Assembly: GCA_001421095.1 (NCBI GenBank)
Contig: LIIK01000008.1
Coordinates: 2,791-66,790 of the forward strand
Source: Candidatus [Bacteroides] periocalifornicus
Lineage (GTDB): Bacteria; Bacteroidota; Bacteroidia; Bacteroidales; CAJPTX01
Length of the DNA: 64,000 nucleotides
Reading direction: 5' to 3'
The translations under genes were made by a program, and so were the position numbers. Positions 23,831 through 40,150 of the stretch are shown here, piece after piece; the stretch's first letter is position 1, and the number at the start of each line of letters is the position of its first letter. Under the pieces are notes generated by a model. It was not told the DNA's origin, made no database searches, and was given only the letters and a program-made list of their open reading frames with translations.

Positions 23831-23864
23831 GGCGCGGGGGCGGTATGCCTCCGCGCCTTTTTTA
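23831..23864 (+). terminator. Rho-independent terminator
   Basis: Stem ggcgcgg/ccgcgcc, then T7. Confidence 0.65.
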
Positions 23865-23972: not shown

Positions 23973-24170
23973 CGACGCGGCGCGCCGCGTCGCTACGTCC
24001 TTCGGGGAACGGGAGAATAGGTTTTAAACCACCGCATTCCAAAGGGTGACCGCGGCAAAAGGCCCGTATGGGTTCAATCTTTATGGGGCTTTCCCCTTCT
24101 TTCGGGTAAACAGGTTTCAATCACGCAATCCCATTTCTCGAAGACCGTAGCGACGCGGCGTGCCGCGTCG
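23973..24170 (-). repeat. REPIN-like ~200-bp inverted doublet of GTAG-palindrome units
   Basis: cgacgcggcgcgccgcgtcgCTAC at 23973-23996 and GTAGcgacgcggcgtgccgcgtcg at 24147-24170. The arms and centre are homologous to 31149-31348 in reverse complement. Confidence 0.8.
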
Positions 24171-24322
24171 TTTACGTAGGCGATGTAGGGTCTTTTGATG
24201 GACATCGATTTTGTGGACTCGGTAGGGGCGGTGCTGTAGGGGCGGGCCGCGAGTTGCCCGCCCACCCTCGAATGCCCGCCCAAACAGAGCAGCGAGAGTC
24301 CCCGACGGGCTCTCGGGCGTTT

Positions 24323-24346
24323 GTAGCGACGTGGCGTGCCGCGTCG
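24323..24346 (+). repeat. GTAG-palindrome box, 'T-variant' (GTAGCGACGTGGCGTGCCGCGTCG), followed by a degenerate 20-22-nt tandem array to ~24440
   Basis: Read directly from the sequence. Lies 209 nt upstream of the ATG at 24532. Confidence 0.7.
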
Positions 24347-24531
24347 CGATTCCAAATGAGCCGCGTTGCGGTTATTAATGCCGCATCACAGTTCTTATAA
24401 TGCCGCGTCGCGATTCTAAGCGTGCCGCATCATTTACATGGCTGTGTAGGAATAAAATCGGTTGTCGGGCGTTTTTCTATTGAGTTGCCTGGGGGTGCGG
24501 TTTTTGTGCATAATCAAATAGAATGTGACTC

Positions 24532-25617
24532 ATGAAAAACAGCTTAAACCTTGCTATTCTCTTGGTTTTTGTTCTCCTGCTTTCGGGGTGTGTAGGGCGC
24601 AGGGGGCGCACCTGGCCATTGGAGCAGATGCCAACAGGCCCCTCAGACTATACCGTTTACTTCCTGCCGCAAAATGTGGTTCAGCTGCAGTTCACCCTAC
24701 TGCGGCATAGGCATACGGCAGGGCCTTACGCAGCGTACCAGGGGCAGCTCCTTGGAGTAGAGCCCGCATCTACTCCCGTGGTGCGGTACGCCATAGGGGC
24801 CGTGCAGCTCCGTACTAGGGTGGCGCCCGACCTTGCCCATCCTATAGCCGCCCGGGTGCCCAGGAACTGCCCGCTGTTCCTCCGTATGCTGAAGGGGGGC
24901 TACCTAGTGCCGGCCAATGCAGACCGGCAGCCCTCTGAGGCGGCGAACCTGCCCGATGGCGAGCGGGAGTCCCAACCCCTCTTTGTCGATCTTTCCGTTC
25001 AGCCGTTCATAGACGATCAGCGGAATATATTCTACTCTGTGGTAGAGCAGGATAGCGCATTGGTACGAGTGCCAGTGCAGCGGACCGTTACGGTTCAGCG
25101 CACGCTGCAGGAGAAGGCGAAGCAGGCCGCCGACCTGATATTCTCCCTGCGCAAAAAGCGAATCGATCTTATTTCAGGAGAGGTAGATCTCTCCAATTCG
25201 CCCGGCACCCTCCCGGTGATGCTTGCCGAAATCGCGAGGCTGGAGGAGGCCTACCTCTCGCTCTTCATTGGGCGAGATGTCACAGATACCCTACGCGTTG
25301 ACTATGAGGTAACCCCGCAGCCCGGGCAAACGATTACCATCCCATGCCGATTCTCGCCCGAGCGTGGCGTGGTGCCAGCCTCCGAGTTTGGGGCGAAGCC
25401 CATCACGCTGTCCATTACGCCGGGGGCGCAGTCCGATTCGGCAGCCCACCATCTCCGTCCTGTTGCGGGGCGTTTCTACTACCGAGTGGCCGCCCCCGTG
25501 GAGTACACGCTCTCGCTGGAGGGGCAGCACCTCCTGCAGGGCCAGTTGTATCTTGCCCAGTTCGGGCGCGTGATGACCCTCCCGCTGGCGACTAGCAGGC
25601 TGGGCCGATGCAAGTAG
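24532..25617 (+). CDS. Lipoprotein of unknown function (possibly DUF4831-like)
   Basis: Lipobox LLLSGC at the N-terminus. No catalytic motif recognised. The family name is from memory only. Confidence 0.5.
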   Translation: MKNSLNLAILLVFVLLLSGCVGRRGRTWPLEQMPTGPSDYTVYFLPQNVVQLQFTLLRHRHTAGPYAAYQGQLLGVEPASTPVVRYAIGAVQLRTRVAPDLAHPIAARVPRNCPLFLRMLKGGYLVPANADRQPSEAANLPDGERESQPLFVDLSVQPFIDDQRNIFYSVVEQDSALVRVPVQRTVTVQRTLQEKAKQAADLIFSLRKKRIDLISGEVDLSNSPGTLPVMLAEIARLEEAYLSLFIGRDVTDTLRVDYEVTPQPGQTITIPCRFSPERGVVPASEFGAKPITLSITPGAQSDSAAHHLRPVAGRFYYRVAAPVEYTLSLEGQHLLQGQLYLAQFGRVMTLPLATSRLGRCK

Positions 25618-25873
25618 AACGGCCGATTTGCCATTGGGGGCAGGCAGAGTTTTGTAGGAAGTCAGGCTTGAGAGGGTTGGAGCCCATTAGAAAACAGCCC
25701 GGGGAGCACGGCGAAATGTACCCACGCCTTCCATTGTAGAGTTGCCCTTTTCCCTTTCAAAGTTAAAAATCTTTAGCCAATCGCGCCCAATTACCGCAGG
25801 CGTAACGGAGCGACGTGCAGAGAGTCGTTTAACAGAGATTCGCAGAGGTCTTGTAATACCATTTCTATTGATC

Positions 25874-27049
25874 ATGCCCATTCCGCAGTCCATTTTTCGC
25901 TACGCGCAGGCCGTGCGGCGCCGTGTGCATGCCCACCCAGAGCTCTCTGCGCAGGAGTGGCATACCGCCTCCTACTTGCAGGCAGAGCTCGAGGCGTTGG
26001 GGTGGAGCCTGGTTACCATTCCTGATACCCCTAGCTTTCTCGCGGTGTGGAATCCTAGAGGCGAGCGCTTTATTGGCTACCGTGCCGAACTCGATGCGCT
26101 CCCCATAGCCGAGGCTACAGACCTGCCCTACGCCAGCGAAAATGCAGGAATCATGCATGCCTGCGGGCATGATATGCACATGGCCATCGCTATGGGGTTG
26201 GCCAAGATGCTCGCCGAGGGCAGCGCGATATTGCCCACCGGGGACGATACCGCATCTTACGGCGTGGTGCTGGTGTTTGAATCGTCTGAGGAGCTTCTCC
26301 CCGGGGGGGCGCCTGCCATATTGTCCAGCTCAGAATTCGCCCGCTACCGCCCCCAGTCTATTTTCGCCTTCCACGCCGATCCATCGCTCGCCACGGGGCA
26401 GATAGGGTTTCACCCAGGGCCATTCATGGCATCGTGCGATGAGCTCTACATTACCGTGTCGGGGCAGGGTGGGCATGGCGCCATGCCGCATCTTACCACC
26501 GATCCAGTGCTGGCCGCAGCGCAAGTGATAGTGGCGCTGCAGGCCGTGAGGGCGCGCATGCTGCCGCCTTTCACCCCGAGCGTGCTCACCATAGGCAGAG
26601 TAGAGGCGTTGGGGGCGACGAACGTGATACCCCACCAGGTGAAGATGCAGGGAACTTTCCGCACGCATGACGAGGAGGTGCGTAGGCAGGCGCACGCGCG
26701 CATTGCCACCGTGGCAGAGCGGGTGGCAGAATCAATGGGCAATACCGCCCAGGTTGAGATACGGCATGGGTACCCCGTGCTGGTGAATGCGCCGGAGCTT
26801 TGCCAGTCTGTAAGGCAGATGCTCAGTGCCGAGTGCGAGAATGCCGAGTGCGTGGAGGTGCCAATGCGCATGACGGCTGACGATTTTGCCTACTATGCCC
26901 AGCAGATTCCCGGGCTTTACCTTCGCCTGGGAGTGGGGGTAGGGGCAGGGCTGCACACCTCGGCCTTCAGCCCCGACGAGCAGGCGCTGGGGGTGGCGCT
27001 CTCAGCCCTGCAAGTACTGTGCCGCCACCCAGAGCGCTGGGGGAGTTAG
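25874..27049 (+). CDS. M20D family amidohydrolase (N-acyl-L-amino acid amidohydrolase-like)
   Basis: Motifs IFRYAQAVRRRVHAHPELS, HACGHDMH and FESSEE..PGGA. The ATG at 25874 gives the typical ~391-aa length; the track start at 25742 is a TTG extension. Confidence 0.85.
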   Translation: MPIPQSIFRYAQAVRRRVHAHPELSAQEWHTASYLQAELEALGWSLVTIPDTPSFLAVWNPRGERFIGYRAELDALPIAEATDLPYASENAGIMHACGHDMHMAIAMGLAKMLAEGSAILPTGDDTASYGVVLVFESSEELLPGGAPAILSSSEFARYRPQSIFAFHADPSLATGQIGFHPGPFMASCDELYITVSGQGGHGAMPHLTTDPVLAAAQVIVALQAVRARMLPPFTPSVLTIGRVEALGATNVIPHQVKMQGTFRTHDEEVRRQAHARIATVAERVAESMGNTAQVEIRHGYPVLVNAPELCQSVRQMLSAECENAECVEVPMRMTADDFAYYAQQIPGLYLRLGVGVGAGLHTSAFSPDEQALGVALSALQVLCRHPERWGS

Positions 27050-27280
27050 GCGGTCCAGGGAGGGATGGTGGAGCGCGGGTGAACGGTGCCAACCAACCTT
27101 TTTGCCCAGTGTGAAAATATTTGTAGCTTTGCAGCCTGATTTTCCGCCAAGAGAGCTGAATGCAACGCAAGGAGGCATCGCACCCCACAATGCGCCACCC
27201 GTGCAGGCCGTGATTGGTTGAGAATCCTGAAAATTCGAATAGGTAGTTAAAGGCTCATTTTTACATTCTTGCAATTCGCC

Positions 27281-27889
27281 ATGTTTGACATTTCAACCTT
27301 CATATCCCACGCGCTCAGCGGGTTCGTTATTCTCTTCGCCATCATCGATATCACGGGGGCTGTGCCAGTGGTGGTGAGCATGCTAGAGCGCGGGCAGACC
27401 TACAAGCCGCTCATAGTGGTAATCGCCTCCCTGGCGTTCTACATCGCGTTTTTCTACCTTGGGCAGGCGATCCTGAAGTTCCTGGGGGTCGATTTCACCT
27501 CGTTTGCCATAGCGGGCGCCCTGGTGCTGCTCGCGATGGCCATGGAGATGATATTTGACATCACCATATTCAAGGATACCAACCATACGGGCGATGCCAC
27601 CTTTGTGCCGTTGGTATTCCCCCTCATTGCAGGGCCGGGCTCCATCACCACCATCCTTGCCTTCAAAACCCAGTTCTCCAACGCGGAGATCCTAGCCGCC
27701 GTGCTGCTCAATCTGCTGGTGGTCTACCTGGTGCTGAAGAATGTCTACCTGGTTCAGAAATTCTTGGGTAAGGCGGGCGTGTACGCGCTACGGAAGTTTT
27801 TCGGGATCATCCTCTTGGCAACGAGCTCTAAGATGCTTATCGAAAATCTCTCCAAGATCATCGCGCAGGTTAGCGGTGCTGGGGAGTAG
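27281..27889 (+). CDS. MarC family (UPF0056) integral membrane protein
   Basis: MFDISTFISHALSGFVILFAIIDITGAVPVV and six TM helices. The first ATG is at 27281. Confidence 0.8.
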   Translation: MFDISTFISHALSGFVILFAIIDITGAVPVVVSMLERGQTYKPLIVVIASLAFYIAFFYLGQAILKFLGVDFTSFAIAGALVLLAMAMEMIFDITIFKDTNHTGDATFVPLVFPLIAGPGSITTILAFKTQFSNAEILAAVLLNLLVVYLVLKNVYLVQKFLGKAGVYALRKFFGIILLATSSKMLIENLSKIIAQVSGAGE

Positions 27890-27914
27890 AGGCTTTCATG
27901 TGGAATTTCTATAG

Positions 27915-27937
27915 GGCGGCGTGGGCCGCCTTTTTTT
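27915..27937 (+). terminator. Rho-independent terminator
   Basis: Stem ggcggc/gccgcc, then T7. Confidence 0.65.
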
Positions 27938-27950
27938 GTGCGCGGTGTGA

Positions 27951-28101
27951 GACATCTGCAAAAGGCCCGTATGGTTTTAATCTTTTACAGGAGGGCTTTC
28001 CTCTTCTTGCAAATAAATAGGTTTTAATCAATCACTTCCATTTCTCGAAGACCGTAGCGACACGGCGTGCCGCGTCGTTCATGTGATTTTGGCAGAGGTC
28101 T
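27951..28101 (-). repeat. MITE-like 151-bp element, inverted copy of 20046-20197
   Basis: TIRs agacatctgcaaaa / ttttggcagaggtct. GTAG-palindrome at 28054-28077. About 96% identical to the 20-kb copy by hand alignment. Confidence 0.7.
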
Positions 28102-28605
28102 TGGTGTGGCATTGTTAGGGCGGGTACTCGGGAGGCGGGCAACTCTCGGCCCGCCCCTACAGCTCCGCTCCTACCCAGGACGTAGTAGCCAATCTCGTTA
28201 TTTGATAGAAATGCGGTTCTCTGCAGCAAAGCACACGTAAGCGAAGCGGCGCGCTTAAAATTGCGAAGCGGCAGATTTAATATCACGACGCGGCACGCCA
28301 CGTCGCTACAAATACGGACCCGTCCCTACAGCATCTCCCCTGCCAAGATCCCCAAGGTAGGGATGGATATCCAATGCATGGGAGCACTGCAACCCATAGA
28401 AAGATGCGGCGCGCTGCGTCTTTTAAACGGGTTTTGCAGAGGTCTTTGTGTATAGTCTGGCCTGTCGCTCCCCCTGCGCGCATCTACGCCTATCTTGCGG
28501 GGGTATTTAGGGGCAGGCCGAAAGTTGCCAGCCCACCCCGTTCCTGCGCGTACCCTTCCACCATCCCATCTGCCCTTTCGTCCTACCAACCTCGTACCAA
28601 CCTCC

Positions 28606-28692
28606 TACCAACCCCGTACCTCCGTCGCTTCAAGTTCGGGTTTCGCCTTAGACGAAACCCGAACTTATAGCGACGGAGGTACGGGGTTGGTA
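28606..28692. repeat. 87-nt near-perfect hairpin element
   Basis: Arms taccaaccccgtacctccgtcgct..aagttcgggtttcg and cgaaacccgaactt..agcgacggaggtacggggttggta. About 40 bp of stem with a 2-nt internal mismatch. It is preceded by 11-nt tandem units c(c/g)taccaacc(t/c). Confidence 0.75.
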
Positions 28693-29119
28693 CGGCGAAG
28701 GTGCGGCCCATGTGTAGCCCAAGTGTGGGGATGGAGTAGGGGTATTTCATGTTCTACCGATTGAAAATAGAGCAGTTTTCGCTATAATTGAAAGATTTTC
28801 CTTTTAATAGGTTATATTTGTATTGAATTGGTAAACAGTTTGTTAGATTTATCATCGAGGATTTTCTTGAATCCTGTTGGAAATTTTCTGGGGTTGTGGG
28901 GTACAAATCCCGGATATCCGCGCTATCTTTGCGGCAAAGTTAACCAGGAGATCTCTGCGAAATCCCCCCAATCATCCGCGTTATCGGTGGTCGCTACGTG
29001 GCGTGCCGCGTCTCGATTAGATCCATCGCATCGTAATTGGGCGTGTGGCGTTGCGATTAGTTGCGCCGCATCGTTTAAATGGATTTTTGCAGAGGTCTTA
29101 CCCCATCATTCCTAGCATC

Positions 29120-29890
29120 ATGGCGATAGCAATACCCCATCAGCCCCGTTACCGAGACCACAGCCTGCCGATCTATTACCTTTGTGGCGAGCAGGTGCGC
29201 ATACGCCGTCGGCCTACGCAGATCCGCGATCCACGCAGCGAGGCGCAGAAGGCGCAGCGGTTACGATTCAAGGTGGCCTCCCACTTTCTGGCGCCGTTCA
29301 AATCGTTCGTGCAGAAGGGCTTTGAGCCGCTTGAGAAGGAGAATTTCCGCCAGGTGGGGGCGTATCAGCAGGCCTTGAGCCACCTGCTGGGGTACGCCAT
29401 ACAGCAGCAGGGTGACGTGGTGAAGGTTGATACCCAAAAGGTTGTACTATCTGAGGGGCGGAAAAACCCTATGGACACTGTGCAGGCTTCGGTGGCTAGC
29501 GGCATGCTGCGGGTGCGGTGGTCGGGTACGTTACCTAAGAAATGCAGCCTGGTACTGGTGGCCGCCCTGAACAGGGCAACCGGCGAGGTGCTGTGCCGGG
29601 AGCTGGAGGCTGGGGAGCTGGGCGATGGATTCGCGCTGAAGGTTCCTGACGATTGGAACGGCGCGGCGTTGGATCTCTGGCTAGCCCCGTGGCACAGCGG
29701 GAATCGTGGGCGTTTTGATTCGATCCACGTGGTGGTAGATGGGGTGCAGCCCGCTGGGCAAGAATTCCTCTGCGCGCATTTGAAGGACCTGATTCCCAAC
29801 CGTAAGGGCAGCTCTATTCGGATAGCCTCTGAGCTCAGACGCCGCATTCTCATCCCTGATTTCTACACAGGCCGACGACGACGGCGGTGA
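29120..29890 (+). CDS. Hypothetical protein (possibly DUF6266-like)
   Basis: The ATG at 29120 lies just after a ttttgcagaggtct repeat end. The pattern VRIRRRPTQIRDPRSEAQKAQRLRFKVASHFLAPFKSFVQKGF resembles my recollection of DUF6266, which is weak evidence. Confidence 0.45.
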   Translation: MAIAIPHQPRYRDHSLPIYYLCGEQVRIRRRPTQIRDPRSEAQKAQRLRFKVASHFLAPFKSFVQKGFEPLEKENFRQVGAYQQALSHLLGYAIQQQGDVVKVDTQKVVLSEGRKNPMDTVQASVASGMLRVRWSGTLPKKCSLVLVAALNRATGEVLCRELEAGELGDGFALKVPDDWNGAALDLWLAPWHSGNRGRFDSIHVVVDGVQPAGQEFLCAHLKDLIPNRKGSSIRIASELRRRILIPDFYTGRRRRR

Positions 29891-30114
29891 GACGCGCCCG
29901 CTTTACGCGTCTTGGCGATACGATTCTTACGTCCCAATCGTTATACAATGTTAGGGTAGGGCGAGCGAGCGTGTTGCGCGGTATCGCCCGTACCAAGATT
30001 GTAGGAACAGACATCGTCAATTTGGGAATGCGTTTTTCCTCTAGATTTTAAGATCTAGGATTCGGGAATCTGCGGATAATTCAACGATATCGGGAATTAC
30101 TCAACCATCCCGCT

Positions 30115-30729
30115 ATGAAGTGTGCCCAGTGGCTATACGGTTTGGTGCTGGTGTGCGTTTTGAGCTCGGTGTGCACCACGGCATCGGCGCAAGATTCTGT
30201 GCCGGTGGAGTTTGGAGGGCGGGTGCTGCCCGCCTACGTAGAGAATGGCGACACCATCCCCTACGAGCACATATTCGAGGTGGTGATAGTGCCGCGACGC
30301 ACCTTTCGGAATGAGCGCGAGCTGCGGGCTTACAGGCGGATGATAGCCAACCTGAAGAAGGTCTACCCGTACGCGCAGGAGGCCAAGCGCCTGCTCCGCG
30401 AGATGGATTCGGTGTACGGGAGCCTCGATTCTCGCATGGCGCGCTCCCGCTACGCTTCTCAGATGGAGCGGAAGCTGAACCGGCAATTTGAGAAGCAGAT
30501 CCGCAACCTCACCTACTCGCAGGGGCGCATGCTCATCAAGCTCATCAACCGGGAGACGGGGCGCACGACCTACGATATCATCAAGCAGTTTCGCGGTGGT
30601 CTCTCGGCGGGGTTCTGGCAGATTATCGCCAAGATGTTCGGGTCAGACCTCAAGTCGGGCTTCGACCCCGTGGAGGAGGATCGCATTCTGAATGAGCTCA
30701 TCATACTCTACGAGCACGGGCAGCTGTAG
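30115..30729 (+). CDS. DUF4294 domain-containing protein
   Basis: Signal peptide, then RELRAYRRMIANLKKVYPYAQEAKRLL and YSQGRMLIKLINRETGRTTYDIIKQFRG. Confidence 0.7.
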   Translation: MKCAQWLYGLVLVCVLSSVCTTASAQDSVPVEFGGRVLPAYVENGDTIPYEHIFEVVIVPRRTFRNERELRAYRRMIANLKKVYPYAQEAKRLLREMDSVYGSLDSRMARSRYASQMERKLNRQFEKQIRNLTYSQGRMLIKLINRETGRTTYDIIKQFRGGLSAGFWQIIAKMFGSDLKSGFDPVEEDRILNELIILYEHGQL

Positions 30730-30768
30730 GGGCGTGATGAAGAATTTGGTGGGTATGGAAAAAGTGCC

Positions 30769-30776
30769 TACCTTTG
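30769..30776 (+). promoter_or_regulatory. -7 promoter box (tacctttg) for the tRNA gene
   Basis: Lies 19 nt upstream of the tRNA 5' end. Confidence 0.5.
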
Positions 30777-30794
30777 CAGTCGGATTCTTGAGGG

Positions 30795-30868
30795 GGCGAG
30801 GTAGCTCAGCTGGTTAGAGCGCATGATTCATAATCATGAGGTCGGCGGTTCAATCCCGCCTCTCGCTA
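30795..30868 (+). tRNA. tRNA with CAT anticodon (elongator tRNA-Met type; tRNA-Ile2/lysidine not excluded)
   Basis: Hand-folded cloverleaf: acceptor ggcgagg/tctcgct (two G-U pairs), D arm gctc-agctggtta-gagc, anticodon arm catga-ttCATaa-tcatg, T arm ggcgg-ttcaatc-ccgcc. No encoded CCA. Confidence 0.85.
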
Positions 30869-30895
30869 CGACATGTGTTTTGGTGAAACAATGGG

Positions 30896-30933
30896 GAAGA
30901 GGGAGGCTTTCGGGTCTCTCTTTTCCTTTTTTT
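30896..30933 (+). terminator. Putative tRNA terminator
   Basis: Stem gaagagggag/ctctcttttc (contains G-U pairs), then a T-run. Confidence 0.4.
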
Positions 30934-30939
30934 GCGGGT

Positions 30940-31495
30940 AGCGCCTTGCATTGGGGGCAGCATCGCTACCAACCCCGAGTCCCCGTTTGGGAGGGCACGC
31001 GGCATTGTTAGGGCGGGCACTTTGGGGTGGGCCGGCGCATGCGGGGTAGGCGGGCACTCGCTACGCTCGGCACCGCCCCTACCAAGAACGCGATGGCAAA
31101 TCTCGACAATTGATAGAAATGGGATTCTCCGCTGCGAAACCTTATAAACGACGCGGCACGCCGCGTCGCTACCTTCTTCGAGAAATGGGATTGCTTGATT
31201 GAAACCCGTTTACCCGTAAGAGAGGGAAAGCCTCCATAAAGATTGAACCCATACGGGTCTTTTGCAGCGGTCTCCCTTTTGGAATCCGGCGGTTTGAAAC
31301 CTATTCTCCCGTTCCCCAAAGGACGTAGCGACGCGGCGTGCCGCATCGTTTAATTACAGGTGCGGCGTTTTTGCCCTGGCGGGGGCGCGCCGCCCCCGAG
31401 GCTGGGCGTGGGCTGCTCTTTCCCCTTTTTGCGTTGGGATGGTACAGCGCGGAATTTTGCGAGAGGTCTTAATCCTTGGTATTCTCATGTAGAAT
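30940..31495. repeat. Intergenic repeat mosaic
   Basis: G-module (31005-31085), a complete REPIN-like doublet, and a ttttgcgagaggtct end motif. Confidence 0.7.
31149..31348 (+). repeat. REPIN-like ~200-bp inverted doublet
   Basis: cgacgcggcacgccgcgtcgCTAC at 31149-31172 and GTAGcgacgcggcgtgccgcatcg at 31325-31348, with a conserved centre aaagattgaacccatacgggtcttttgcagcggtct. Confidence 0.8.
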
Positions 31496-31498
31496 GGC

Positions 31499-31506
31499 TA
31501 CCTTTG
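31499..31506 (+). promoter_or_regulatory. -7 promoter box (tacctttg)
   Basis: Lies 25 nt upstream of the parA-like ATG. Confidence 0.5.
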
Positions 31507-31530
31507 CCCCAATCATAATACCGTTCGCCT

Positions 31531-32325
31531 ATGGCTCGGACTTTGGCTCTGCTGAACAACAAGGGGGGGACAGGAAAAACCACCACTACCCTAGGGCTCG
31601 GTGCGGCGTTAGCCCGACGACGGCAGCGCGTGCTGCTCATAGATCTCGATAGTCAGCGAAACCTCTCGGCGGCCTTTACGCTCCCCGAGGGCTACACGGG
31701 CATAGGCCATGCGCTAGTGGATAGCCTACCGCTACACGAGGCGATGGTGAAGGTGGACAAGCAGCTCTGGGTGCTGGGCTCTACGCCAGCGCTGGTGGAT
31801 TATGAGTACCAGCTGAGCCATGAGCCCGGGCGGGAGTTCATACTGCGTGAGGCCTTGGCGCCATTGCAGAGCGAATTCGACTTCATCCTGCTGGACTGCG
31901 CTCCTAGCCTGGGTACGCTTACCGTGAATGCGCTCACAGCTGCGGACGGATTCATAGTGCCGATGCAGGCGGAGAATTTCGCCTTTCTGGGGCTAGACCG
32001 AATCCTAGAGACTGCCGATAAGGCCAAGCGGAGAATGAATCCCAAGCTGGAGCTGGAGGGTATTCTCTTCGTGAAGCTGAATCCCCGCACCACGTTCTCC
32101 AAGGCTGTAGTGCAGAGCTTGGCCAAGGATCCTCGCACGGCGGGGAGGGTCTTCCACACCTACATTCGGCAGGATATTGCGCTTATGGAGTGCTCGGCAT
32201 TCCAGAAAAGCGTGTTTGAGTACGCCCCCAGCAGCAATGGGGCGCATGATTACGCAGACCTAGCCCGTGAGTTACTGCAGCGCACGGGTGACCAGAGTGG
32301 TAAGCATAACCTTGAGGAGAAGTAG
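31531..32325 (+). CDS. ParA/Soj-family ATPase (deviant Walker A)
   Basis: LNNKGGTGKTTTT, LLIDLDSQ and ILLDCAPSLG. Confidence 0.85.
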   Translation: MARTLALLNNKGGTGKTTTTLGLGAALARRRQRVLLIDLDSQRNLSAAFTLPEGYTGIGHALVDSLPLHEAMVKVDKQLWVLGSTPALVDYEYQLSHEPGREFILREALAPLQSEFDFILLDCAPSLGTLTVNALTAADGFIVPMQAENFAFLGLDRILETADKAKRRMNPKLELEGILFVKLNPRTTFSKAVVQSLAKDPRTAGRVFHTYIRQDIALMECSAFQKSVFEYAPSSNGAHDYADLARELLQRTGDQSGKHNLEEK

Positions 32326-32327
32326 AT

Positions 32328-32570
32328 ATGGCCAAGAAGAGACGCCCTGCCCTGACCGATATTCAGGATGCTCTCCATGCGCAGACCCGCTACCTTACGG
32401 GAGGTGAAGCGTCATTACCCCTCTCGGCAGATTCGCTGCACAAGCTCCAGGTGCTGGCAGAGTACCAGGGCACTACGGTGGAGGCGCTGCTGCAGCTCGC
32501 GGTAGATGACCTCCTCTCGCTGCGCGCCAGGCAGCTGAAGGCCGCCATGGACGAGCGGGGCGAGGCGTGA
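32328..32570 (+). CDS. Small ribbon-helix-helix-like protein (ParG/CopG-like partner of ParA)
   Basis: Starts 2 nt after the parA stop. 80 aa with a basic N-terminus (MAKKRRPAL) and SLPLSADSLHKLQVLAEYQGTTVEALLQLAVDDLL, a strand-helix-helix pattern. Confidence 0.5.
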   Translation: MAKKRRPALTDIQDALHAQTRYLTGGEASLPLSADSLHKLQVLAEYQGTTVEALLQLAVDDLLSLRARQLKAAMDERGEA

Positions 32571-32929
32571 TCGGCGCGCCTCCTGCTGGGATCATCGGCG
32601 AGCGTTGCTATTGCGATCTGGGTAGGGGAGGTGCCGAGCGCAGCGAGTGCCCTCCCTAATGCATCGTGGCGTGCCGCGTCGCGGTTACATTAATGTTGCG
32701 TCGCAATTATTAATGCCGCATCGCAATTCTACGCGTGCCGCGTCGTTTATGTGGTTTTTGCCGAGGTCTTGGATGGTATGCGCGGGGAGGAGATGGGCGG
32801 GGGAATCTTCGCGTTGCGAAGACCCCGCCCCTACAGTCGGCATTGCGAGGAGATCGTTGCGGGGTATGCCGCACCGACCATCGTGTACGCCCACATAGGC
32901 ATCAACGGGAGCGGCGAATGGGCGGATAA

Positions 32930-33132
32930 CGACGCGGCACGCCGCATCGCTACGTCCTCCGGGAAACGGGGAAATAGGATTTAAACCATCGTATTCCAAA
33001 AGGGGACTCCTCTGCAAAAGGCCTGTAGGGGTCAATCTTTTTTAAAGGATTCTTTCCCTTCTTGCGCGTAAATAGGTTTCAATCAGGCAATTCCATTTCT
33101 CGAAGACCGTAGCGACGCGGCGTGCCGCGTCG
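32930..33132 (-). repeat. REPIN-like ~200-bp inverted doublet
   Basis: Cores at 32930-32953 (…CTAC) and 33109-33132 (GTAG…). Confidence 0.8.
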
Positions 33133-33318
33133 GTTATAAAAACCGTGGGTTTCTATGGGTGGCGCGGAATGCGCATGGAGGCGGCGGCAATGGCAACATG
33201 TGGCTCGCAATGCGACACGCAATGGTATCCCCGCAAACGCCGACTGTAGGGTGCGGGGTCTTCGCGGTCCGCGCGAAGATTTCCCCGCCCGTTGTCACCA
33301 TGCGCCGCTGCGGCGTTT

Positions 33319-33342
33319 GTAGCGACGTGGCGTGCCGCGTCG
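33319..33342 (+). repeat. GTAG-palindrome box, T-variant
   Basis: GTAGCGACGTGGCGTGCCGCGTCG, 142 nt upstream of the ATG at 33461. Confidence 0.7.
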
Positions 33343-33408
33343 CAATTCTTAGCATCCTGCCGGTAGCGGCGTTCATTTTTTCTATTTCGCCATTTCTTTC
33401 GAAATGTC

Positions 33409-33416
33409 TACCTTTG
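33409..33416 (+). promoter_or_regulatory. -7 promoter box (tacctttg)
   Basis: Lies 45 nt upstream of the ATG at 33461. Confidence 0.5.
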
Positions 33417-33460
33417 CAGGAGATTAGGCAGTGTTGCGGCAATTCTCATCGGAAAGCAAA

Positions 33461-34801
33461 ATGGCCACAAGAATAAAAAGCATCAAATGCCCGCAGTGCG
33501 GGAGTACTCGCGTGGAGGAGCTGGCCAACGGGCGTTTCCGTTGCAGGAGCTGCTCCACCACGTTCTTCCTCGATAGCGACGATATCACCATACACCACCA
33601 GTACGATGCGCCGCAGCTGCGGAAGTACCTAACGGGGAAAAATCTGCGTATCGTGCTGATTTCGGTGCTGGGGATGGTGGCCTTGTACGTGCTCTCATCT
33701 ATACTGTCGCCCCGTTCGTCTAGCACGCAGTCGTCGTTATCGCAATCCGTCCGCGATATCGAGAATGTTGAGGAAAAGGAGGCCGAACCCGTTTTCGAGG
33801 CCAAGTACGCGGTGCCCTTTGCCAATAAGGATGGAATGCCGATGATTGCCCTGTTCGGCGTGCAGAGAACGGGCCAATATCCCAAGGTGAAGGAAGATTT
33901 TCTGCTGAAAATATACGATGTCACAGAGGAAGAGATGGTGAGCGCTTCGCTGCTGCCTATAGACCGATTGGGCAGGTTGGAGTACCGGCTCTTTGCCAAC
34001 GGGAAGCTGAACATCATCATCAACGAAAGGCGTTGGTTCGTGCTCGATAGGCAGCTCTATTCGCTGGAAGAGCAAAACAGCTATAGGGAAATAGAACAGC
34101 TGAGCTCAGGATTCGCTTCGGTCAAGTTCGATTATATAGGCCGAGGCGACGGGATGGAGCTGATGACGAATCTGGGCAAGGCGTACTATTACTACCCCTC
34201 TATAGGCAAGGTTTACACGAAAGATCAGTACTTTGATGCCCTGAATAGTCGGCCTCCGCACGCGGTGGTTCGCACGGCTTTCGCCTTTTCATCGGTTACT
34301 GATGACTACCCGGAGCAGGATATTCAGCTGCTGAAAGTCAAGCAGTATTGGAAGGATGGCTACCCGCATGATTTTGTAGATGGATTCGGGTGGTATAAGG
34401 ATTTTGGCGGGAAATTCATCGTCTACACTGATCGCGATCCGTATACAAAGGCCTTCATCAGCAAGTACAATGCCAATAGGGTTCGGCTCATTTCCTACAA
34501 GGATTTCACGCCGGGTTCCATTTATTTTGACCCCGATGTTTTCTATTTCAACGACAGCATCCTCCTTATTGGCTACAAGCCCACGGCGGCGCCCGATGCC
34601 GTCTACCAGTTCCAGCTTTTGGATGCCAACACCGCGGAACGAAAATGGACGGCGCAGAAGCCCGCAGAGCTCTCTGGCAGCGTTGCCAATGACGAGGCTG
34701 TGCTCACCTCGAAGGGCTTTATGCTGGCTTATGGCCGCAAGGTGTGGCTGCTGGGGCTCGACGGTAAAAACCGCTCCATTTCGTCGTTCTATAAGTACTA
34801 A
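33461..34801 (+). CDS. Zinc-ribbon / single-TM protein with large extracytoplasmic domain (unknown function)
   Basis: CPQCGS...CRSC ribbon, TM helix LRIVLISVLGMVALYVLSSIL, then ~350 aa rich in Y/F/D/K. The ATG at 33461 is preferred over the GTG at 33431. Confidence 0.6.
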   Translation: MATRIKSIKCPQCGSTRVEELANGRFRCRSCSTTFFLDSDDITIHHQYDAPQLRKYLTGKNLRIVLISVLGMVALYVLSSILSPRSSSTQSSLSQSVRDIENVEEKEAEPVFEAKYAVPFANKDGMPMIALFGVQRTGQYPKVKEDFLLKIYDVTEEEMVSASLLPIDRLGRLEYRLFANGKLNIIINERRWFVLDRQLYSLEEQNSYREIEQLSSGFASVKFDYIGRGDGMELMTNLGKAYYYYPSIGKVYTKDQYFDALNSRPPHAVVRTAFAFSSVTDDYPEQDIQLLKVKQYWKDGYPHDFVDGFGWYKDFGGKFIVYTDRDPYTKAFISKYNANRVRLISYKDFTPGSIYFDPDVFYFNDSILLIGYKPTAAPDAVYQFQLLDANTAERKWTAQKPAELSGSVANDEAVLTSKGFMLAYGRKVWLLGLDGKNRSISSFYKY

Positions 34802-34897
34802 AGGTGGGGATAAAATGCCGCGAGGCGTATTGCACGCATGGCAAAGAGACTGATAGGCAGATTTCTATGATTATTTAAAGACCGCAGCAATAGCGCA

Positions 34898-35911
34898 ATG
34901 GGTATAAAGAATCTTTTCCACAGGCAGCTATCTACCGTTATCCAGTGGGCAGGCGACGATGGTGATTTCTGGTATAAATACCCCTCAAAGCACGATGAAA
35001 TCATCAATGCCAGCAAGCTCATAGTGGCGCCCGGGCAGGGTGCTGTGCTGGTGTATGAGGGCGAGGTGGTAGATGTTATAGAAGAGGCGGGCTCGTTCAA
35101 CCTGAAAACCGATAACCATCCGTTCTTCACCAACCTTGTAAGGCTACGCCAGGGGTTTGAGAGTGAGCACAAGCTGAAGATCTACTTCTTCCGTAAAACG
35201 CAGGTCTTGAACCAGCTCTGGGGGACGGCCGCACCGGTAAAGCTCATCGATAAGCAATACCGCATCCCGGTAGAATTGGGGGTCAATGGCAATTTCTCGT
35301 ACCGAATGGCCGATGCCCGGCTGTTCCTGGCGGGTATCACGGGAGGGCGCGAGGAGTACTCTACCAGCGAACTCAGCGAGGTCTTGGCCGACCGGATAGT
35401 GCAGAATATCATCACGGAGCTGCACCAGGCAGACTATTCCTACGTGCAGATAGATGCCCACCTCGATGCGATGGCGGGGGCATTAAAGCAGAAGCTCGCC
35501 CCTGTTTTCCAGCAGCTGGGGCTAGAGCTCGCCGACTTCAGAATCATGGGAACGCAGTTCGACGAGGCGACCCGTGCGCGCATTGGGCGTATTGCCGACG
35601 TTACCTCCGATGCGCAGGCAGCGCAGGGGGCCGGGATGACGTACGCTGAGCTCGAGAAACTGCGGGCGTTGCGCGATGCTGCCCGTAATGAAGGCGGCCT
35701 GGCGGGCGCTGGCGTTCAGATGGGCGTGGGCATAGAGATGGGACGGCAAATGGGCGCAGTATCGGGCTCGGCAGGCAGAAACGGGGCGGCACAGACTACC
35801 GACGAGGAGCTGGCCCAACGGCTAAGGCGGCTGAAACTCCTGCTCGACGAGCACGTAATCACCCAGGATGACTACGAGCAGATGAAACGGCAACTGCTGC
35901 TGAAATCCTAA
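34898..35911 (+). CDS. SPFH (Band-7, YdjI/'virion core protein'-like, COG4260) protein with C-terminal SHOCT domain
   Basis: N-terminus LSTVIQWAGDDGDFWYKYPSKHDEIINASKLIVAPGQGAVLVYEGEVV. C-terminus ELAQRLRRLKLLLDEHVITQDDYEQMKRQLL (SHOCT pattern). Confidence 0.7.
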   Translation: MGIKNLFHRQLSTVIQWAGDDGDFWYKYPSKHDEIINASKLIVAPGQGAVLVYEGEVVDVIEEAGSFNLKTDNHPFFTNLVRLRQGFESEHKLKIYFFRKTQVLNQLWGTAAPVKLIDKQYRIPVELGVNGNFSYRMADARLFLAGITGGREEYSTSELSEVLADRIVQNIITELHQADYSYVQIDAHLDAMAGALKQKLAPVFQQLGLELADFRIMGTQFDEATRARIGRIADVTSDAQAAQGAGMTYAELEKLRALRDAARNEGGLAGAGVQMGVGIEMGRQMGAVSGSAGRNGAAQTTDEELAQRLRRLKLLLDEHVITQDDYEQMKRQLLLKS

Positions 35912-35932
35912 CAACATCTAGCATTCTGAACT

Positions 35933-36205
35933 ATGGCATACATTAAGGGAATCGTGCTGAGCATCGTGCTTCTCGCCTTGCTCATCATAGCCTATTTTAC
36001 CCTGGATATGTGGGGTGTAGGGCTTCCATTCAGCCGGGGCACGCTGTACAGCATCGTCATCACGGTGGGCATTGTGGATTGCGTTGTAATCCTTCTGCTC
36101 ATTTTCCTGCCGTTCCTTTTCAAAAAAGAGGGGGCGGGGTACGACAAAACGGGCACAGGGGTAGCGCAACGGAAAAGGAGAAAAGACCAGATTATCGCGG
36201 AATAG
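35933..36205 (+). CDS. Small two-TM membrane protein
   Basis: Two hydrophobic helices and a basic tail (QRKRRKDQ). Starts 21 nt after the SPFH gene. Confidence 0.45.
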   Translation: MAYIKGIVLSIVLLALLIIAYFTLDMWGVGLPFSRGTLYSIVITVGIVDCVVILLLIFLPFLFKKEGAGYDKTGTGVAQRKRRKDQIIAE

Positions 36206-36448
36206 GCTGGCATGGAGAAGTGGAAGGGGAGGGCCAGGCAGGGGAAGGATGGAATAGGCAGGCAGGGGAGGGGGAGTGGGCAGGCAACTTTCGGCCTGCC
36301 CCTACATGGTCTATCCCCTATGCGGCATCGCCTTTGCCCAGATCGCAGGAATGGGGGCATCGATTGATGAAGGCATTACCCTTCCGATGATTTTTGATTT
36401 CAAAGGTCTAGAATCTGATAGTAAGATTCTATTAATTAAATAATTACG

Positions 36449-38515
36449 ATGATGAAGAACGGTGTACTACGGCTGGCAGTGGTGCTCGCTTTGCTATTGG
36501 GTGCTGCTGGGGTGAAGGGGCAGGATGGGAAATCCTTCATTACCCTATGGGATACGGAGCTAAGGGTCGTCTACCTTGTGTACGATGGAAAGGAGATACA
36601 CGGGGTGGATGTGGATGATAAGACGCTCTACATCCCGATAGTTGGGGAGAACTACGCAGTGAGCTACCGCAAGGTGGGGGAGAGCCAGTGGACTGATGCT
36701 GGCAGGCACACCACCCAGAGGGGGAAGGCTCTGATACTAAAGCTCCCAACCCCCGGGAAGTACTACGTGAAGGCTGGACCCGAGGGGGTAAAGGCAATAT
36801 ACGGTGGAGGGCAGCACTACACAACATGGACGGGTACGAACAGCCGCTTGCTGGAGGTGGTCTCGTTTGGCGATGTGGAGTGGGGCGAAAATGGGCTGGA
36901 GAGCGCTTTTATCGCCAGCACAGCGCTAACCACGATGGGGGTACGCAAGGCGGAATTCCCCGACGCACGGCTTACGCCAAAGGGGGTGAAGGGATCGCTG
37001 CGCCACCTATTCTGCGATTGCAGAGAGTTCAATGGCGACCTCTCCCAATGGGATGTGAGCCAGGTTACCAACCTAGACAGCACCTTCGCGGGCTGCGAGA
37101 AGTTCAACGGCGATCTCTCCAAGTGGAATGTGGGCAATGTGACCTCTATGCGCAGCACATTCTACGGTTGCGATGTTTTCAATGCGAACCTCTCAGAATG
37201 GAACGTGGGCCGTGTGGTACGTATGGACGATATGCTCCACGGTTGCTATGTTTTTAGCTCAGATATCTCCCGATGGAATGTGGCGCAGGTGGCAAATATG
37301 GATCAGCTGTTCTACTATTGCTGGGCCTTCAATGCGGATATCTCCAAGTGGAATGTGGCTCGGGTAACCACGATGAATCGGATGTTCTATGGGTGTAAAA
37401 TCTTCAATGCCAATCTCTCCAGATGGGATGTGTCCAATGTGGAGGATATGGGCTTTATGTTCTGGGGGTGTGAGGCTTTCAACGCGGATCTTAGCCTGTG
37501 GAACGTGGGGAAGGTCGCCTCGATAGGGGGTATGTTTGTAAGGTGTAAGGCTTTCAACTACGACTGTATCACAAGCTGGGTGCCTCGCTCGCTGGAGAGA
37601 GGGCATATGTTCAGCGATGCCATAACCCCCGCGGCATGGAGTAGAATTCTGAAGGCTTGGGGGGCTATAGCCGATCGGCTTCCTCTGAATGCGAAAGTGG
37701 GGGCGGAGTGCAAGCATTTCAAGAGTGCCAACGCGGCAATAGCCCAGCTGAACGGCAGGGGATGGGAGATACTGGATGGCGGTGAGATGGACGGGGTTAT
37801 CTTCCGGTACGATGCGAATGGCGGCGTATTTGCAGGGGGAAAAACCACTTGGGACGATGAAACGGAGGGAAAGGCGGAGGCCCCGAAGGTGCGCCCAACC
37901 AAGGCGGGTTTCGTGGTGTCTGGCTGGTATCAGGATGCAGCTTGCACCCGAAAGTGGGACTTCACGAAGAGCTACCCAATGGGCGGTAGCCCCTACACCA
38001 TCTACGCTGGGTGGAGGGCCGGTAAGATCCTCACGATTATCCCACCGTCCAATGGTTCGCTAGAGGTGCGGGAAGGTGCTACCGTGCTGCCTACAGGATC
38101 TGGCGTTGCAGAGGGTGTGATTCTCACCATAATAGCCACTCCCGCGGAAGGCTATACCCTGAAGTCAATCACTGTCAACGGAACTCCCATAGCTACCAGT
38201 AGCCCGGCAACCTATACCGTGGCAGGCGACCTGGAGGTATCGGCAGAATTTGCAGAGGGAGGTAATACACCGGTGGAGGGGCTTGCAAGGGTGGTGGCTG
38301 CCCCCAATCCGTTTGGGCATTCGCTAATCCTGATGAATGCTGAGCGGGTGGCTAGCTACACAGTACTGAATGCAAAGGGTGCGGTAGTGGCAAGCGGGGC
38401 GCATGATGGCTCGCCAACGCTACAAATAACCGCGCAGGACTGGCCTAGCGGTTTCTACCTCGTGCGGCTAGTGGGACCTGACGGGGTGAAGGTGCTGCGG
38501 ATCGTGAAGATGTAG
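36449..38515 (+). CDS. BspA-type leucine-rich-repeat surface protein with Listeria-Bacteroides (Flg_new) repeat and T9SS type-A C-terminal domain
   Basis: Signal peptide. About 8 repeats of FxGCxxFNxDLSxWNVxxVTxMxxMF. GFVVSGWYQDAACTRKWDF. C-terminal NPFGHSLILMNAERVASYTVLNAKG...GFYLVRLVG...LRIVKM. Confidence 0.8.
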   Translation: MMKNGVLRLAVVLALLLGAAGVKGQDGKSFITLWDTELRVVYLVYDGKEIHGVDVDDKTLYIPIVGENYAVSYRKVGESQWTDAGRHTTQRGKALILKLPTPGKYYVKAGPEGVKAIYGGGQHYTTWTGTNSRLLEVVSFGDVEWGENGLESAFIASTALTTMGVRKAEFPDARLTPKGVKGSLRHLFCDCREFNGDLSQWDVSQVTNLDSTFAGCEKFNGDLSKWNVGNVTSMRSTFYGCDVFNANLSEWNVGRVVRMDDMLHGCYVFSSDISRWNVAQVANMDQLFYYCWAFNADISKWNVARVTTMNRMFYGCKIFNANLSRWDVSNVEDMGFMFWGCEAFNADLSLWNVGKVASIGGMFVRCKAFNYDCITSWVPRSLERGHMFSDAITPAAWSRILKAWGAIADRLPLNAKVGAECKHFKSANAAIAQLNGRGWEILDGGEMDGVIFRYDANGGVFAGGKTTWDDETEGKAEAPKVRPTKAGFVVSGWYQDAACTRKWDFTKSYPMGGSPYTIYAGWRAGKILTIIPPSNGSLEVREGATVLPTGSGVAEGVILTIIATPAEGYTLKSITVNGTPIATSSPATYTVAGDLEVSAEFAEGGNTPVEGLARVVAAPNPFGHSLILMNAERVASYTVLNAKGAVVASGAHDGSPTLQITAQDWPSGFYLVRLVGPDGVKVLRIVKM

Positions 38516-38700
38516 GGATGGTGCTCACAGGTGGGGGGCTTTGGACGGCGAAGCCCCCTCTACGGTCGGCGTTGCGGGGTATGCCGCTTGACTAACATTC
38601 TACGCCCATGCGGGGATGCCATGCGCGTATATCGCCAACCAATCCGTGAGTTTTCTAAGTTGATGCGATGATCAATGGAAACGGCGTGAAGGCGAGTCAA

Positions 38701-38899
38701 CGACGCGGCACGCCGCGTCGCTACGTCCTTCGGAGAACGGGAGAATCGGTTTTAAACCGCCGTATTCCAAAAGGGGACCGCGGCGAAAGGCCGTAGGGGG
38801 TCAATCTTTCTGGGGAGATTTTCCCTTCTTGCGCGTAAATCGGCTTCAATCATGCAATTCCATTTCTCGAAGAGCGTAGCGACGCGGCGTGCCGCGTCG
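38701..38899 (-). repeat. REPIN-like doublet, copy 1 of tandem trio
   Basis: Cores at 38701-38724 and 38876-38899. Confidence 0.8.
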
Positions 38900-39061
38900 T
38901 TTATGGGAGGTTTGCAGAGGTCTTGGATGGTATGCGCGGAGGCGATGGGCGGGGGAATCTTCGCGCTGCGAAGCCCCCTCTACGGTCGGCGTTGCGGGGT
39001 ATCTCTATTGGCCAACATTTACGTCACAGCGGAAATCAACGGGAACGCCATGGGCGGATAA

Positions 39062-39256
39062 TGACGCGGCACGCCGCGTCGCTACGTCCTTCGGGAAACG
39101 TGAGGATAGGATTTAACCGCCGTATTCCAAAAGGGAGGCCGCGGCAAAAGGCCTGTAGGGGTTCAATTTTTTATGGGGGGCCTTCTTGTTGGTAAAGACC
39201 TTTTAATCATGCAATCCCATTTCTCGAAGAGCGTAGCGACGCGGCGTGCCGCGTCG
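39062..39256 (-). repeat. REPIN-like doublet, copy 2 of tandem trio
   Basis: Cores at 39062-39085 (tgacgcggc variant) and 39233-39256. Confidence 0.8.
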
Positions 39257-39305
39257 TTGTAAAAACCGTAAGGTCTCCTTAGGTGGGAGCCATAAAGGCG
39301 GATAA

Positions 39306-39496
39306 CGATGCGGCACGCCGCGTCGCTACGTCCTTCGGGAATCGGGAGAATAGGTTTTAAACCTCCGCATTCCAAAAGAGGGACCGCGGCGAAAGGCCTA
39401 TGTGGTCAATCAATTTTTAAAGGGGGCTTTGGTAAACAGTTTTTAATCACGCAATTCCATTTCTCGAAGAGCGTAGCGACGCGGCGTGCCGCGTCG
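39306..39496 (-). repeat. REPIN-like doublet, copy 3 of tandem trio
   Basis: Cores at 39306-39329 (cgatgcggc variant) and 39473-39496. Confidence 0.8.
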
Positions 39497-40128
39497 TTTT
39501 GTGTGGGCGCTACAGAGAATCCCATTTCTATCAATTAACGAGATTTGCTATCTCGTTCTTGGTAGGGGCGGTGCTGTAGGGGCGGGTCGAGAGTTGCCCG
39601 CCCACCCCCGAGTACCCTCCCTAACAGTGCCGTGTCGGTTATAAAAACCGTGGCTCTCCATGCGTGGCATGGTATGCGCATGAAGGCGGCGGCAATGGCG
39701 ACATGTGGATCGCAATGCGACACGCAATGGCCTCCCCGCAAACGCCGACTGTAGGGTGCGTGGTCTTCGCAACGCGAAGATTCCCCCGCCCACCGTCTCC
39801 GCCGCGCAAATCCTCCCCGTCCGCCCCATCCACCATACGCGGTTACGGGAGGCCTGCGCGAGGGGCATCAAGAATCGCCCGCAGGCCTGTGCCCACGGGA
39901 TATGCGGGCTATTCCCCATCTCGGGAGTACCTAGCGCACTACCTTCGCGGCGTGGAATCGAGAGATTCCTCTTGCCTGCACCCTAAATCAGGACGCACAA
40001 TCAATCTACCGTAATAACCAACCAAAACCATACCGACATGGCCAATGCAATTCCCCACAAGCTCCGCTACCAGGACTGCCCCCACCCTCTTCCTGGAGTG
40101 CGACCGCCTGCTGGTGTAAGCTGCGTTA

Positions 40129-40150
40129 GTAGCGACGTGGCGTGCCGCGT
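40129..40150 (+). repeat. GTAG-palindrome box, T-variant (3' arm truncated) + short array
   Basis: GTAGCGACGTGGCGTGCCGCGT, then tcccaaac repeats. Lies 197 nt upstream of the ATG at 40326. Confidence 0.6.

Follow-up and report, generated by a model that had tools for sequence, protein, structure and literature searches.

Systems composed of repetitive extragenic palindromes (REPs) and REP-associated tyrosine transposases (RAYTs) are well studied in Proteobacteria. The GTAG-type REPs and their transposase TnpA_REP were reportedly the subject of work by Nunvar in 2010, Ton-Hoang in 2012 and Messing in 2012. Here, we describe a family of GTAG-tagged palindromes, and of inverted doublets formed by them, in a stretch of 64,000 nucleotides from Candidatus [Bacteroides] periocalifornicus (contig LIIK01000008.1, positions 2,791 to 66,790; henceforth the window, to which all coordinates without a contig name refer). 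Like the REPs and bacterial interspersed mosaic elements (BIMEs) of E. coli with the transposase YafM (PDB entry 4ER8), the elements are short GC-rich palindromes with a GTAG foot at the 5' end, they are extragenic and they occur in many copies. As in the E. coli REP/TnpA_REP pair, one Y1/HUH gene is bracketed by inverted REPs, and the HUH, WQ and Y..NP motifs of its product align with those of 4ER8. Very probably, the repeats are GTAG-type REPs, many of them arranged as doublets similar to REPINs (REP doublets forming hairpins), and are components of a REP-RAYT system in Candidatus [Bacteroides] periocalifornicus.

GTAG repeats have been listed for Proteobacteria, Cyanobacteria, Chloroflexi and the Planctomycetes-Verrucomicrobia-Chlamydiae (PVC) group, for Bacteroidetes just CGTC repeats (Di Nocera, 2013, PMC3733652). 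REPINs are known from Pseudomonas, Neisseria and E. coli (Bertels and Rainey, 2011). Operationally, they are defined by REPs less than 130 bp apart, the usual unit being about 100 bp long (Bertels and Rainey). They have been tied to RAYTs of Groups 2 and 3 alone; the 16-mers which flank Group 4 RAYTs are found just about 14 times per replicon (Bertels et al., 2017, PMC5581495). Group 4 equals subclass 2.4 in the classification of Quentin et al. (2018, PMC6006769). This subclass is found in Cyanobacteria and Bacteroidetes, has the motifs NH[IFV]H, WQ and YIxNNP, and its hallmarks are 'canonical long' and 'double-foot' REPs as well as REPs inserted within tnpA (PMC6006769).

The REP of the window is a 24-mer, GTAG followed by CGACGCGGC-GT-GCCGCGTCG, i.e., a 9-bp stem with a 2-nt centre in which GTAG abuts the stem directly. 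A search with GTAGCGACGCGGCGTGCCGCGTCG allowing up to three mismatches yielded 19 copies, compared with 0.00 expected from 100 shuffles. The copies range from 20071 to 45569. All 19 have kept the GTAG foot and all 19 are located in non-coding DNA, spread over eight spacers, with no copy within 1-20 kb or 46-64 kb of the window. Three additional degenerate copies (28397-28425, 28989-29017, 32653-32686) were recovered from the repeat families. The density in the window, about 0.3 REPs per kb, is that of a small and non-random sample. A metagenome-assembled genome (MAG) of a sister lineage contains at least 103 REP copies in 48 stretches. The repeats differ from the GTAG repeats catalogued in PMC3733652 in that the host belongs to the Bacteroidota and in that the stem is a near-perfect 9-bp palindrome around a 2-nt centre. 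The features by which a GTAG-type REP is recognised are all present, i.e., a palindrome of 20-40 nt, a GTAG or GTGG foot at the 5' end, extragenic position, over-representation, and a RAYT flanked by the same REP. The last of these rests on 15 of 15 loci outside the window's own assembly, among which L059-L062 are assigned to the species via a neighbouring protein (see below).

An earlier note on this DNA, made from the sequence alone, had reported at least 20 copies, an acceptable figure considering 19 copies plus three degenerate ones. Its description of the element as GTAG with a 9-bp stem and a 2-nt centre, absent from genes, holds. It had given 23973-39496 as the coordinates of the family. 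The true range is wider, and the truncated half-units at 20071-20197 and 27958-28077 were missed.

The REPs come in two variants which differ by a single nucleotide. The C-type is a perfect palindrome (CGACGCGGC..) and is used by the doublets. In the T-type (CGACGTGGC..), which flanks the RAYT, one position is G·T and the tail CG[A/G]TT is conserved. In the window 6 of the 19 copies are T-type, none of which forms a doublet. The surveyed sequence, mostly sister-MAG contigs chosen because they carry the motif, comprises 76 T-type versus 47 C-type copies. A possible link of T-type REPs to promoters was suggested by the window, where 4 of 5 are located upstream of genes in the same orientation. 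The wider survey has undone this hint: 28 of the 76 T-type copies are oriented toward same-strand gene starts, equally many toward convergent gene ends, and 20 have no long open reading frame (ORF) within 450 nt.

The six inverted doublets of the window are located at 23973-24170 (198 bp), 31149-31348 (200 bp), 32930-33132 (203 bp), 38701-38899 (199 bp), 39062-39256 (195 bp) and 39306-39496 (191 bp), exactly as had been noted earlier. Each consists of two inverted REPs, with GTAG pointing inward at both ends, and a spacer of about 150 nt. In five units the interior has one orientation, in the unit at 31149 it is flipped. Including related contigs, 20 non-redundant doublets were available for comparison. 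Their length is 184-204 bp and the distance from REP to REP is 175-183 nt. The 24-nt REP ends have a mean pairwise identity of 95%, compared with 78-84% in the arms and 72% in the centre. The centre, which had been called conserved in the earlier note, is actually the least conserved part. As single-stranded DNA a doublet is predicted to fold such that the terminal REPs pair into a stem of 27-28 bp, lengthened by about ten further pairs which the arms contribute (z = -8.8 and -7.0); the self-complementarity of the arms noted earlier is borne out by these pairs.

In several respects the doublets correspond to REPINs. Two inverted REPs are predicted to fold into one long hairpin, the ends are conserved and the spacers less so, the units are extragenic, and the associated RAYT appears to be vertically inherited and single-copy. 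In other respects they deviate. With REPs 175-183 nt apart and a total length of about 200 bp they exceed the operational limit, a recognisable spacer of about 150 nt is common to all copies, and the motif signature of the RAYT is that of Group 4 and not of Group 2 or Group 3.

The window itself contains no RAYT as examined by tblastn and hmmsearch, and the earlier note had stated as much. The partner gene was reached by an exact 24-mer scan of one genome per species, in which matches were mainly found in a human oral Bacteroidia MAG, JABCOB02. This MAG represents a sister lineage and is about 90% identical to the window over shared stretches. On one contig of this MAG an ORF of 176 aa (L021 199-729) is enclosed by two REPs which face inward and are separated by 714 bp. 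The protein scored 26.2 bits against Pfam Y1_Tnp (cut-off 23) and E = 5e-12 against the NCBIfam model REP_Tyr_transpos, the REP-associated tyrosine transposase. It carries the motifs NHFH, WQ and YIDNNP; N80-H81-x-H83, W139-Q140, Y160 and N164 are invariant in 40-48 homologues. The sole sequence match in the PDB is 4ER8, E. coli TnpA_REP, aligned at the HUH and WQPRF..YI..NP motifs. This match is weak (E = 0.98), and the structural alignment has about 20% identity, both points of difference from the E. coli enzyme. The AlphaFold model has a pLDDT (predicted local distance difference test) of 85, and all 30 Foldseek matches in the PDB with E <= 0.001 are either 4ER8 or TnpA of the insertion sequence (IS) family IS200/IS605. 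The predicted structure of the 176-aa ORF product thus matches that of an HUH/Y1 transposase with an IS200/IS605-type fold.

The resemblance to IS200/IS605 elements such as IS608 and ISDra2 comprises the predicted transposase fold, the catalytic motifs, subterminal hairpins and the lack of a target duplication. There are differences as well: here the gene is single-copy and syntenic instead of multi-copy, the flanking hairpins are inverted copies of one sequence and not a distinct left and a distinct right end, and it is the hairpins which are abundant, not the gene.

From oral metagenomes 15 RAYT loci of the same species and of sister lineages were recovered. Without exception the gene has a minus-strand REP 79 nt upstream and a plus-strand REP 58 or 85 nt downstream, each with GTAG toward the gene. 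The downstream REP is present in one to four tandem copies depending on the strain. The ORF is free of internal REPs. In every contig of sufficient length the gene order is PAS, D12 methyltransferase, RAYT, Tricorn-like S41 protease, two Asp-Al_Ex genes and GARS. A profile search of all sequence collected identified no second type of RAYT locus. The dN/dS ratio of the RAYT is 0.20-0.27 in lineage comparisons with enough changes, versus 0.11 for the neighbouring protease. Judged by these comparisons, the RAYT is under purifying selection and appears to be a single-copy, vertically inherited gene; single-copy status was read from contigs (one syntenic position, one locus type). The link to the species of the window is provided by KQM08267, a transporter of the window's own genome. 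The transporter encoded two genes downstream of the RAYT in L059 shares 98.7% identity with it, compared with 96.8-97.2% for transporters of other lineages. Therefore, the intact RAYT of L059-L062 (P0123) can be assigned to the window's species. The supposition of the earlier note, a REPIN-like system in a member of the Bacteroidota with its RAYT elsewhere in the genome, is supported by a Y1 transposase that is flanked by the same palindromes at 15 of 15 loci.

Among the rows of Table 1 in Quentin et al. (2018, PMC6006769) the combination NHFH / WQ / YIDNNP fits only subclass 2.4. The RAYT thus fits into subclass 2.4 / Group 4, an assignment by motifs and not by a tree. The motif signature is accompanied by further likenesses to this subclass, i.e., a length of about 180-190 aa and Bacteroidetes as hosts. 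Double-foot REPs and REPs within tnpA occur in relatives. Double-foot units of 28 nt (GTAG-palindrome-CTAC) exist in the sister MAG. The nearest homologue, P0003 from a Bacteroidales MAG, is 38-41% identical and has a REP in frame inside its own transposase ORF (L079 3245-3272), unlike the periocalifornicus RAYT. A further difference concerns abundance. Set against the low numbers described for Group 4, the window alone has 19 REPs and six doublets in 26 kb.

The flank of P0003 (L079 3548-3575) reads GTAG-AGACGTGGC-GT-GCCGCGTCT-CCAC. It is the same REP except that the basal pair has changed in a compensatory manner from C-G to A-T. Two further RAYT relatives have similar REP cores in their flanks (L081, L083). 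A common core, GACG[C/T]GGC..GCC[G/A]CGTC, accompanies RAYT relatives which are just 38-41% identical. The exact 24-mer is also present in rumen and horse-gut Bacteroidia MAGs with a GC content of 43-47% (L014 1375-1402, L017 6735-6762, L025 668-691, L036 5308-5335). Their sequence contexts are unlike that of the window. In L014, L017 and L025 a single hairpin, double-foot in L014 and L017, is centred in AT-rich, microsatellite-like inverted repeats; in L036 a double-foot hairpin has ordinary flanks.

The dynamics of the repeats emerge from orthologous contigs of other oral samples which are 98.2-99.8% identical to the window. All indels of 15 bp or more in these comparisons fall in the repeats. 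In place of doublet 3 (32930-33132) L068 has one 20-nt palindrome without GTAG, a difference of 183 bp. Doublets 5 and 6 are represented by one palindrome in L063 (415 bp). The spacer between the DUF4294 and ParA genes, which in the window holds just doublet 2, has two doublets in L063 and three in L064; in L068 it has one doublet and a lone palindrome. The earlier note had proposed a comparison of strains for presence and absence of copies; copy number does differ between strains that are 98-99.8% identical. The half-site arrays described below differ between strains as well, in steps of 20-22 bp. Near the RAYT, two contigs of 98% identity, L055 and L056, differ by blocks of 911 bp (L055 4931-5841) and 352 bp (L056 7228-7579). 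Within the 911-bp block are a doublet and one more REP; a second copy, to which the block corresponds, is located at a distance of about 907 bp.

Doublet losses which could be resolved at the sequence level are bounded by palindromes. Filled and empty alleles differ by one palindrome-to-palindrome period, and the flanks, TAAA...TTTA, are inverted and not direct. The palindrome is the same in both orientations and, thus, the ends of a doublet are also direct repeats. The simplest account of gains and losses between strains is recombination between the 20-nt palindromes or slippage of replication between them. Recombination between palindromes explains the differences of whole doublets at least as well as transposition.

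How the REPs and doublets came to populate intergenic DNA can be proposed by analogy to E. coli TnpA_REP and the IS200/IS605 enzymes. The RAYT would recognise the folded hairpin and GTAG on single-stranded DNA, its tyrosine would cleave and rejoin REP DNA, and in this manner REPs and doublets may have been spread slowly through intergenic DNA. Several points weigh against this picture and against the assignment to a REP-RAYT system in general. With 45.8 bits, the protein falls short of the equivalog cut-off of the NCBIfam model, 80 bits; this model is presumably built mainly on proteobacterial RAYTs, which is our assumption. The RAYT was read in same-species contigs and not on the window's own assembly, and the protein cluster contains no KQM-numbered RAYT. 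The RAYT is flanked by T-type REPs, yet the doublets are built of C-type REPs, one nucleotide apart. Among the tandem doublets whose number varies, identity is only 86-89%; hence they are old, and loss is more parsimonious than gain. Near-identical doublets at separate loci were not found, the best non-orthologous identity being about 91%, and the doublets compared carry no sign of recent transposition. Finally, a direct demonstration of RAYT-mediated mobility is, for any REPIN, absent from the literature consulted.

A more ambitious version of the REP-RAYT interpretation is that a Group-4 / subclass-2.4 RAYT maintains a dense and still active population of REPINs with long spacers. The lone palindromes without GTAG would then be excision scars or preferred insertion targets. 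We consider this rather unlikely. If it were true, the strain differences would constitute the first record from natural populations of REPIN gain and loss outside the Proteobacteria.

Alternatively, the palindromes might be sites with a function for the host, such as binding of a nucleoid or regulatory protein, termination of transcription or stabilisation of mRNAs by hairpins, which are maintained and spread by selection and recombination while the RAYT has no present role in their dynamics. Recombination can account for all of the observed polymorphism, the REP ends are conserved far above the spacers, and co-option of E. coli REPs for such roles is known from the literature. Further, the ~90% identical lineage has a T-type REP at approximately the same position behind the MarC gene. 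This REP, L008 2566-2589, is found roughly where the window has the half-unit 27958-28077; the alignment ends before it and the likeness is positional only. Terminators as a function are at odds with the sequences ahead of the REPs. Strong hairpins followed by T-runs, resembling intrinsic terminators, are present on the plus strand at 23831-23857, 27913-27932 and 30893-30928, immediately following the genes for CitMHS and MarC and a tRNA, respectively. This places the REPs between terminators and the next promoters. Because the stop codons are separated from the REPs by these independent terminators, the REPs are probably not primary terminators. Nor does REP orientation follow a rule relative to genes, as the even split of the T-type copies demonstrates. 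If RAYT and palindromes were unrelated, an intact RAYT under purifying selection and its constant bracketing by the same REP would be left unexplained, as would the REP core that travels with RAYT relatives of 38-41% identity. We regard a purely host-functional origin as improbable.

Still less credible is that the ~200-bp units are miniature inverted-repeat transposable elements (MITEs), i.e., internally deleted copies of a DDE-transposase IS with palindromic terminal inverted repeats, moved with target-site duplication. The units do look the part, with terminal inverted repeats that are imperfect and about 55 nt long, a conserved interior, a non-coding location, and presence or absence as a whole between strains. 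Yet in two comparisons of filled and empty sites there is no short direct duplication outside the palindromes; only the 20-nt palindrome is duplicated, and a third, collapsed site is alike. The ends are GTAG-footed hairpins identical to those around a Y1 transposase, and singleton REPs exist which are not a product of MITE transposition. Among the ORFs inspected no transposase besides the RAYT stands beside the repeats, and no parent IS was seen in the sequence inspected. The earlier note had conceded that its interpretation would fall if the repeats proved to be fragments of a known IS. Comparison with plasmid records revealed no similarity, and the doublet interior is unlike the RAYT cassette. 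Derivation of the doublets from RAYT cassettes by internal deletion was considered and rejected, as the interior shares with the cassette just chance matches of 8-12 nt.

An integron-like or shufflon-like cassette array, in which the palindromes would serve a site-specific recombinase, can practically be dismissed: the genes are all on one strand with conserved imperfect inverted repeats between them, but they are housekeeping genes whose order is conserved across the strain contigs recovered, several genes lie between consecutive repeats, the repeat cluster at 38701-39496 is gene-free, and the window encodes neither integrase nor recombinase.

Besides intact doublets the window contains truncated units, singletons and degenerate copies. 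One half-unit on the minus strand (20071-20197) consists of the REP GTAGCGACACGGCGTGCCGCGTCG at 20071-20094 and about 100 nt of doublet interior, with no second REP. The other one, on the plus strand (27958-28077), has about 94 nt of interior and a REP at 28054-28077. T-type singletons are located at 28286-28309 (minus strand) and 33319-33342 (plus strand). Degenerate copies are a palindrome at 28397-28425 with 69% identity to the reference and the REP GTCGCTACGTGGCGTGCCGCGTCT at 28989-29017 on the plus strand.

Other T-type REPs are followed by tandem arrays of half-sites, composed of the REP 3' half and its tail (..GCCGCGTCGCGATTC..), at 24335-24440, 32665-32745, 40141-40190 and 45562-45648. 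The period is about 21 nt, at 45562 it is 44 nt. Such arrays also flank the RAYT (L021 1-96, 811-940). The individual features, all on the plus strand, are as follows. At 24323-24440 a T-type REP of the RAYT-flanking variant (GTAGCGACGTGGCGTGCCGCGTCG-CGATTC) precedes an array with a 20-bp strain difference. At 32653-32745 a degenerate REP is joined to an array of ~21-nt half-sites which varies by 20-22 bp between strains. A T-type REP with three mismatches and repeated 3' half-sites, GCCGCGT(T/C)(C/G)C..CCCAAAC, occupies 40129-40190. At 45546-45648 a T-type REP is followed by two 44-nt tandem copies which begin with the REP 3' half.

Two more families of GTAG-tagged palindromes are present in the same spacers as the main family. 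The first is GTAG-GGGCGGG-n10-CCCGCCC with an 8-bp stem. It has two copies versus 0 expected (24236-24263 and 39576-39603, plus strand), each of them after GGTAGGGGCGGTGCT, and no cognate RAYT was seen. The other one is a long palindrome, GTAG-(A/G)GGG..TCTTCGC-loop-GCGAAGA..CCCC, with four cores versus 0.07 expected (32807-32821, 33260-33278, 38959-38973, 39765-39779) and a degenerate copy near 38540-38570. Its presence in the spacers of the main family indicates that several REP-like families make up a mosaic in the intergenic DNA, similar to the BIMEs of E. coli. RAYT paralogues which might serve these other families were not found in the sequence collected for this analysis.

The host was identified by exact matches of five window proteins to its GenBank entries (KQM09264, KQM09272, KQM09273, KQM09276, KQM09279). 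Candidatus [Bacteroides] periocalifornicus is an uncultured, oral, periodontitis-associated bacterium with a draft genome of 2.53 Mb. Of the two papers which describe it, one is silent on repeats, and a term search of the second one gave no hits for repeats, palindromes or transposases. A literature search retrieved no paper on the repeats in Candidatus [Bacteroides] periocalifornicus. Coding sequence makes up 76% of the window, non-coding sequence 24%. It has a typical chromosomal gene set of Bacteroidota, including PorP/SprF, Por_Secre_tail (the sorting domain of the type IX secretion system, T9SS), DUF4831 and DUF4294, and also chorismate synthase, ParA, a CitMHS transporter, an M20 peptidase, a tRNA and T9SS components. 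An Rfam scan of the window reported nothing beyond two tRNAs.

A few more features of the window were noticed. A plus-strand ORF of 2419 aa (11697-18956) and a PorP/SprF gene (18953-19951, plus strand) overlap by 4 nt at the start of the latter, and the pair looks like a giant T9SS cargo with a dedicated outer-membrane partner. Propeptide_C25 and Peptidase_C25 domains, which are gingipain-like, are encoded by adjacent, separate ORFs on the plus strand (47839-48354 and 48570-49394); a protease gene may have been split or frameshifted here. Between 54000 and 58000 the GC content is 0.42-0.45 versus about 0.55 elsewhere and the genes turn to the minus strand. This segment may have been acquired horizontally.

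REP-RAYT systems as such are not new, and RAYTs of subclass 2.4 with REPs have been reported from Bacteroidetes (PMC6006769); the system in Candidatus [Bacteroides] periocalifornicus is a further example. What is noteworthy are the doublet spacers of about 150 nt, the RAYT of the Group 4 type alongside a dense REP population, and the occurrence of the GTAG type in the Bacteroidota. Searches for doublets that are limited to REPs less than 130 bp apart would miss doublets of ~200 bp. The repeats are length-polymorphic markers which lend themselves to strain typing, and they probably contribute to breaks in metagenome assemblies of periocalifornicus. Finally, the same REP core is found with RAYTs of 38-41% identity and the palindrome recurs in MAGs from rumen and horse gut. 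By this evidence, the pair of REP core and RAYT appears to be old and widespread in the Bacteroidales.

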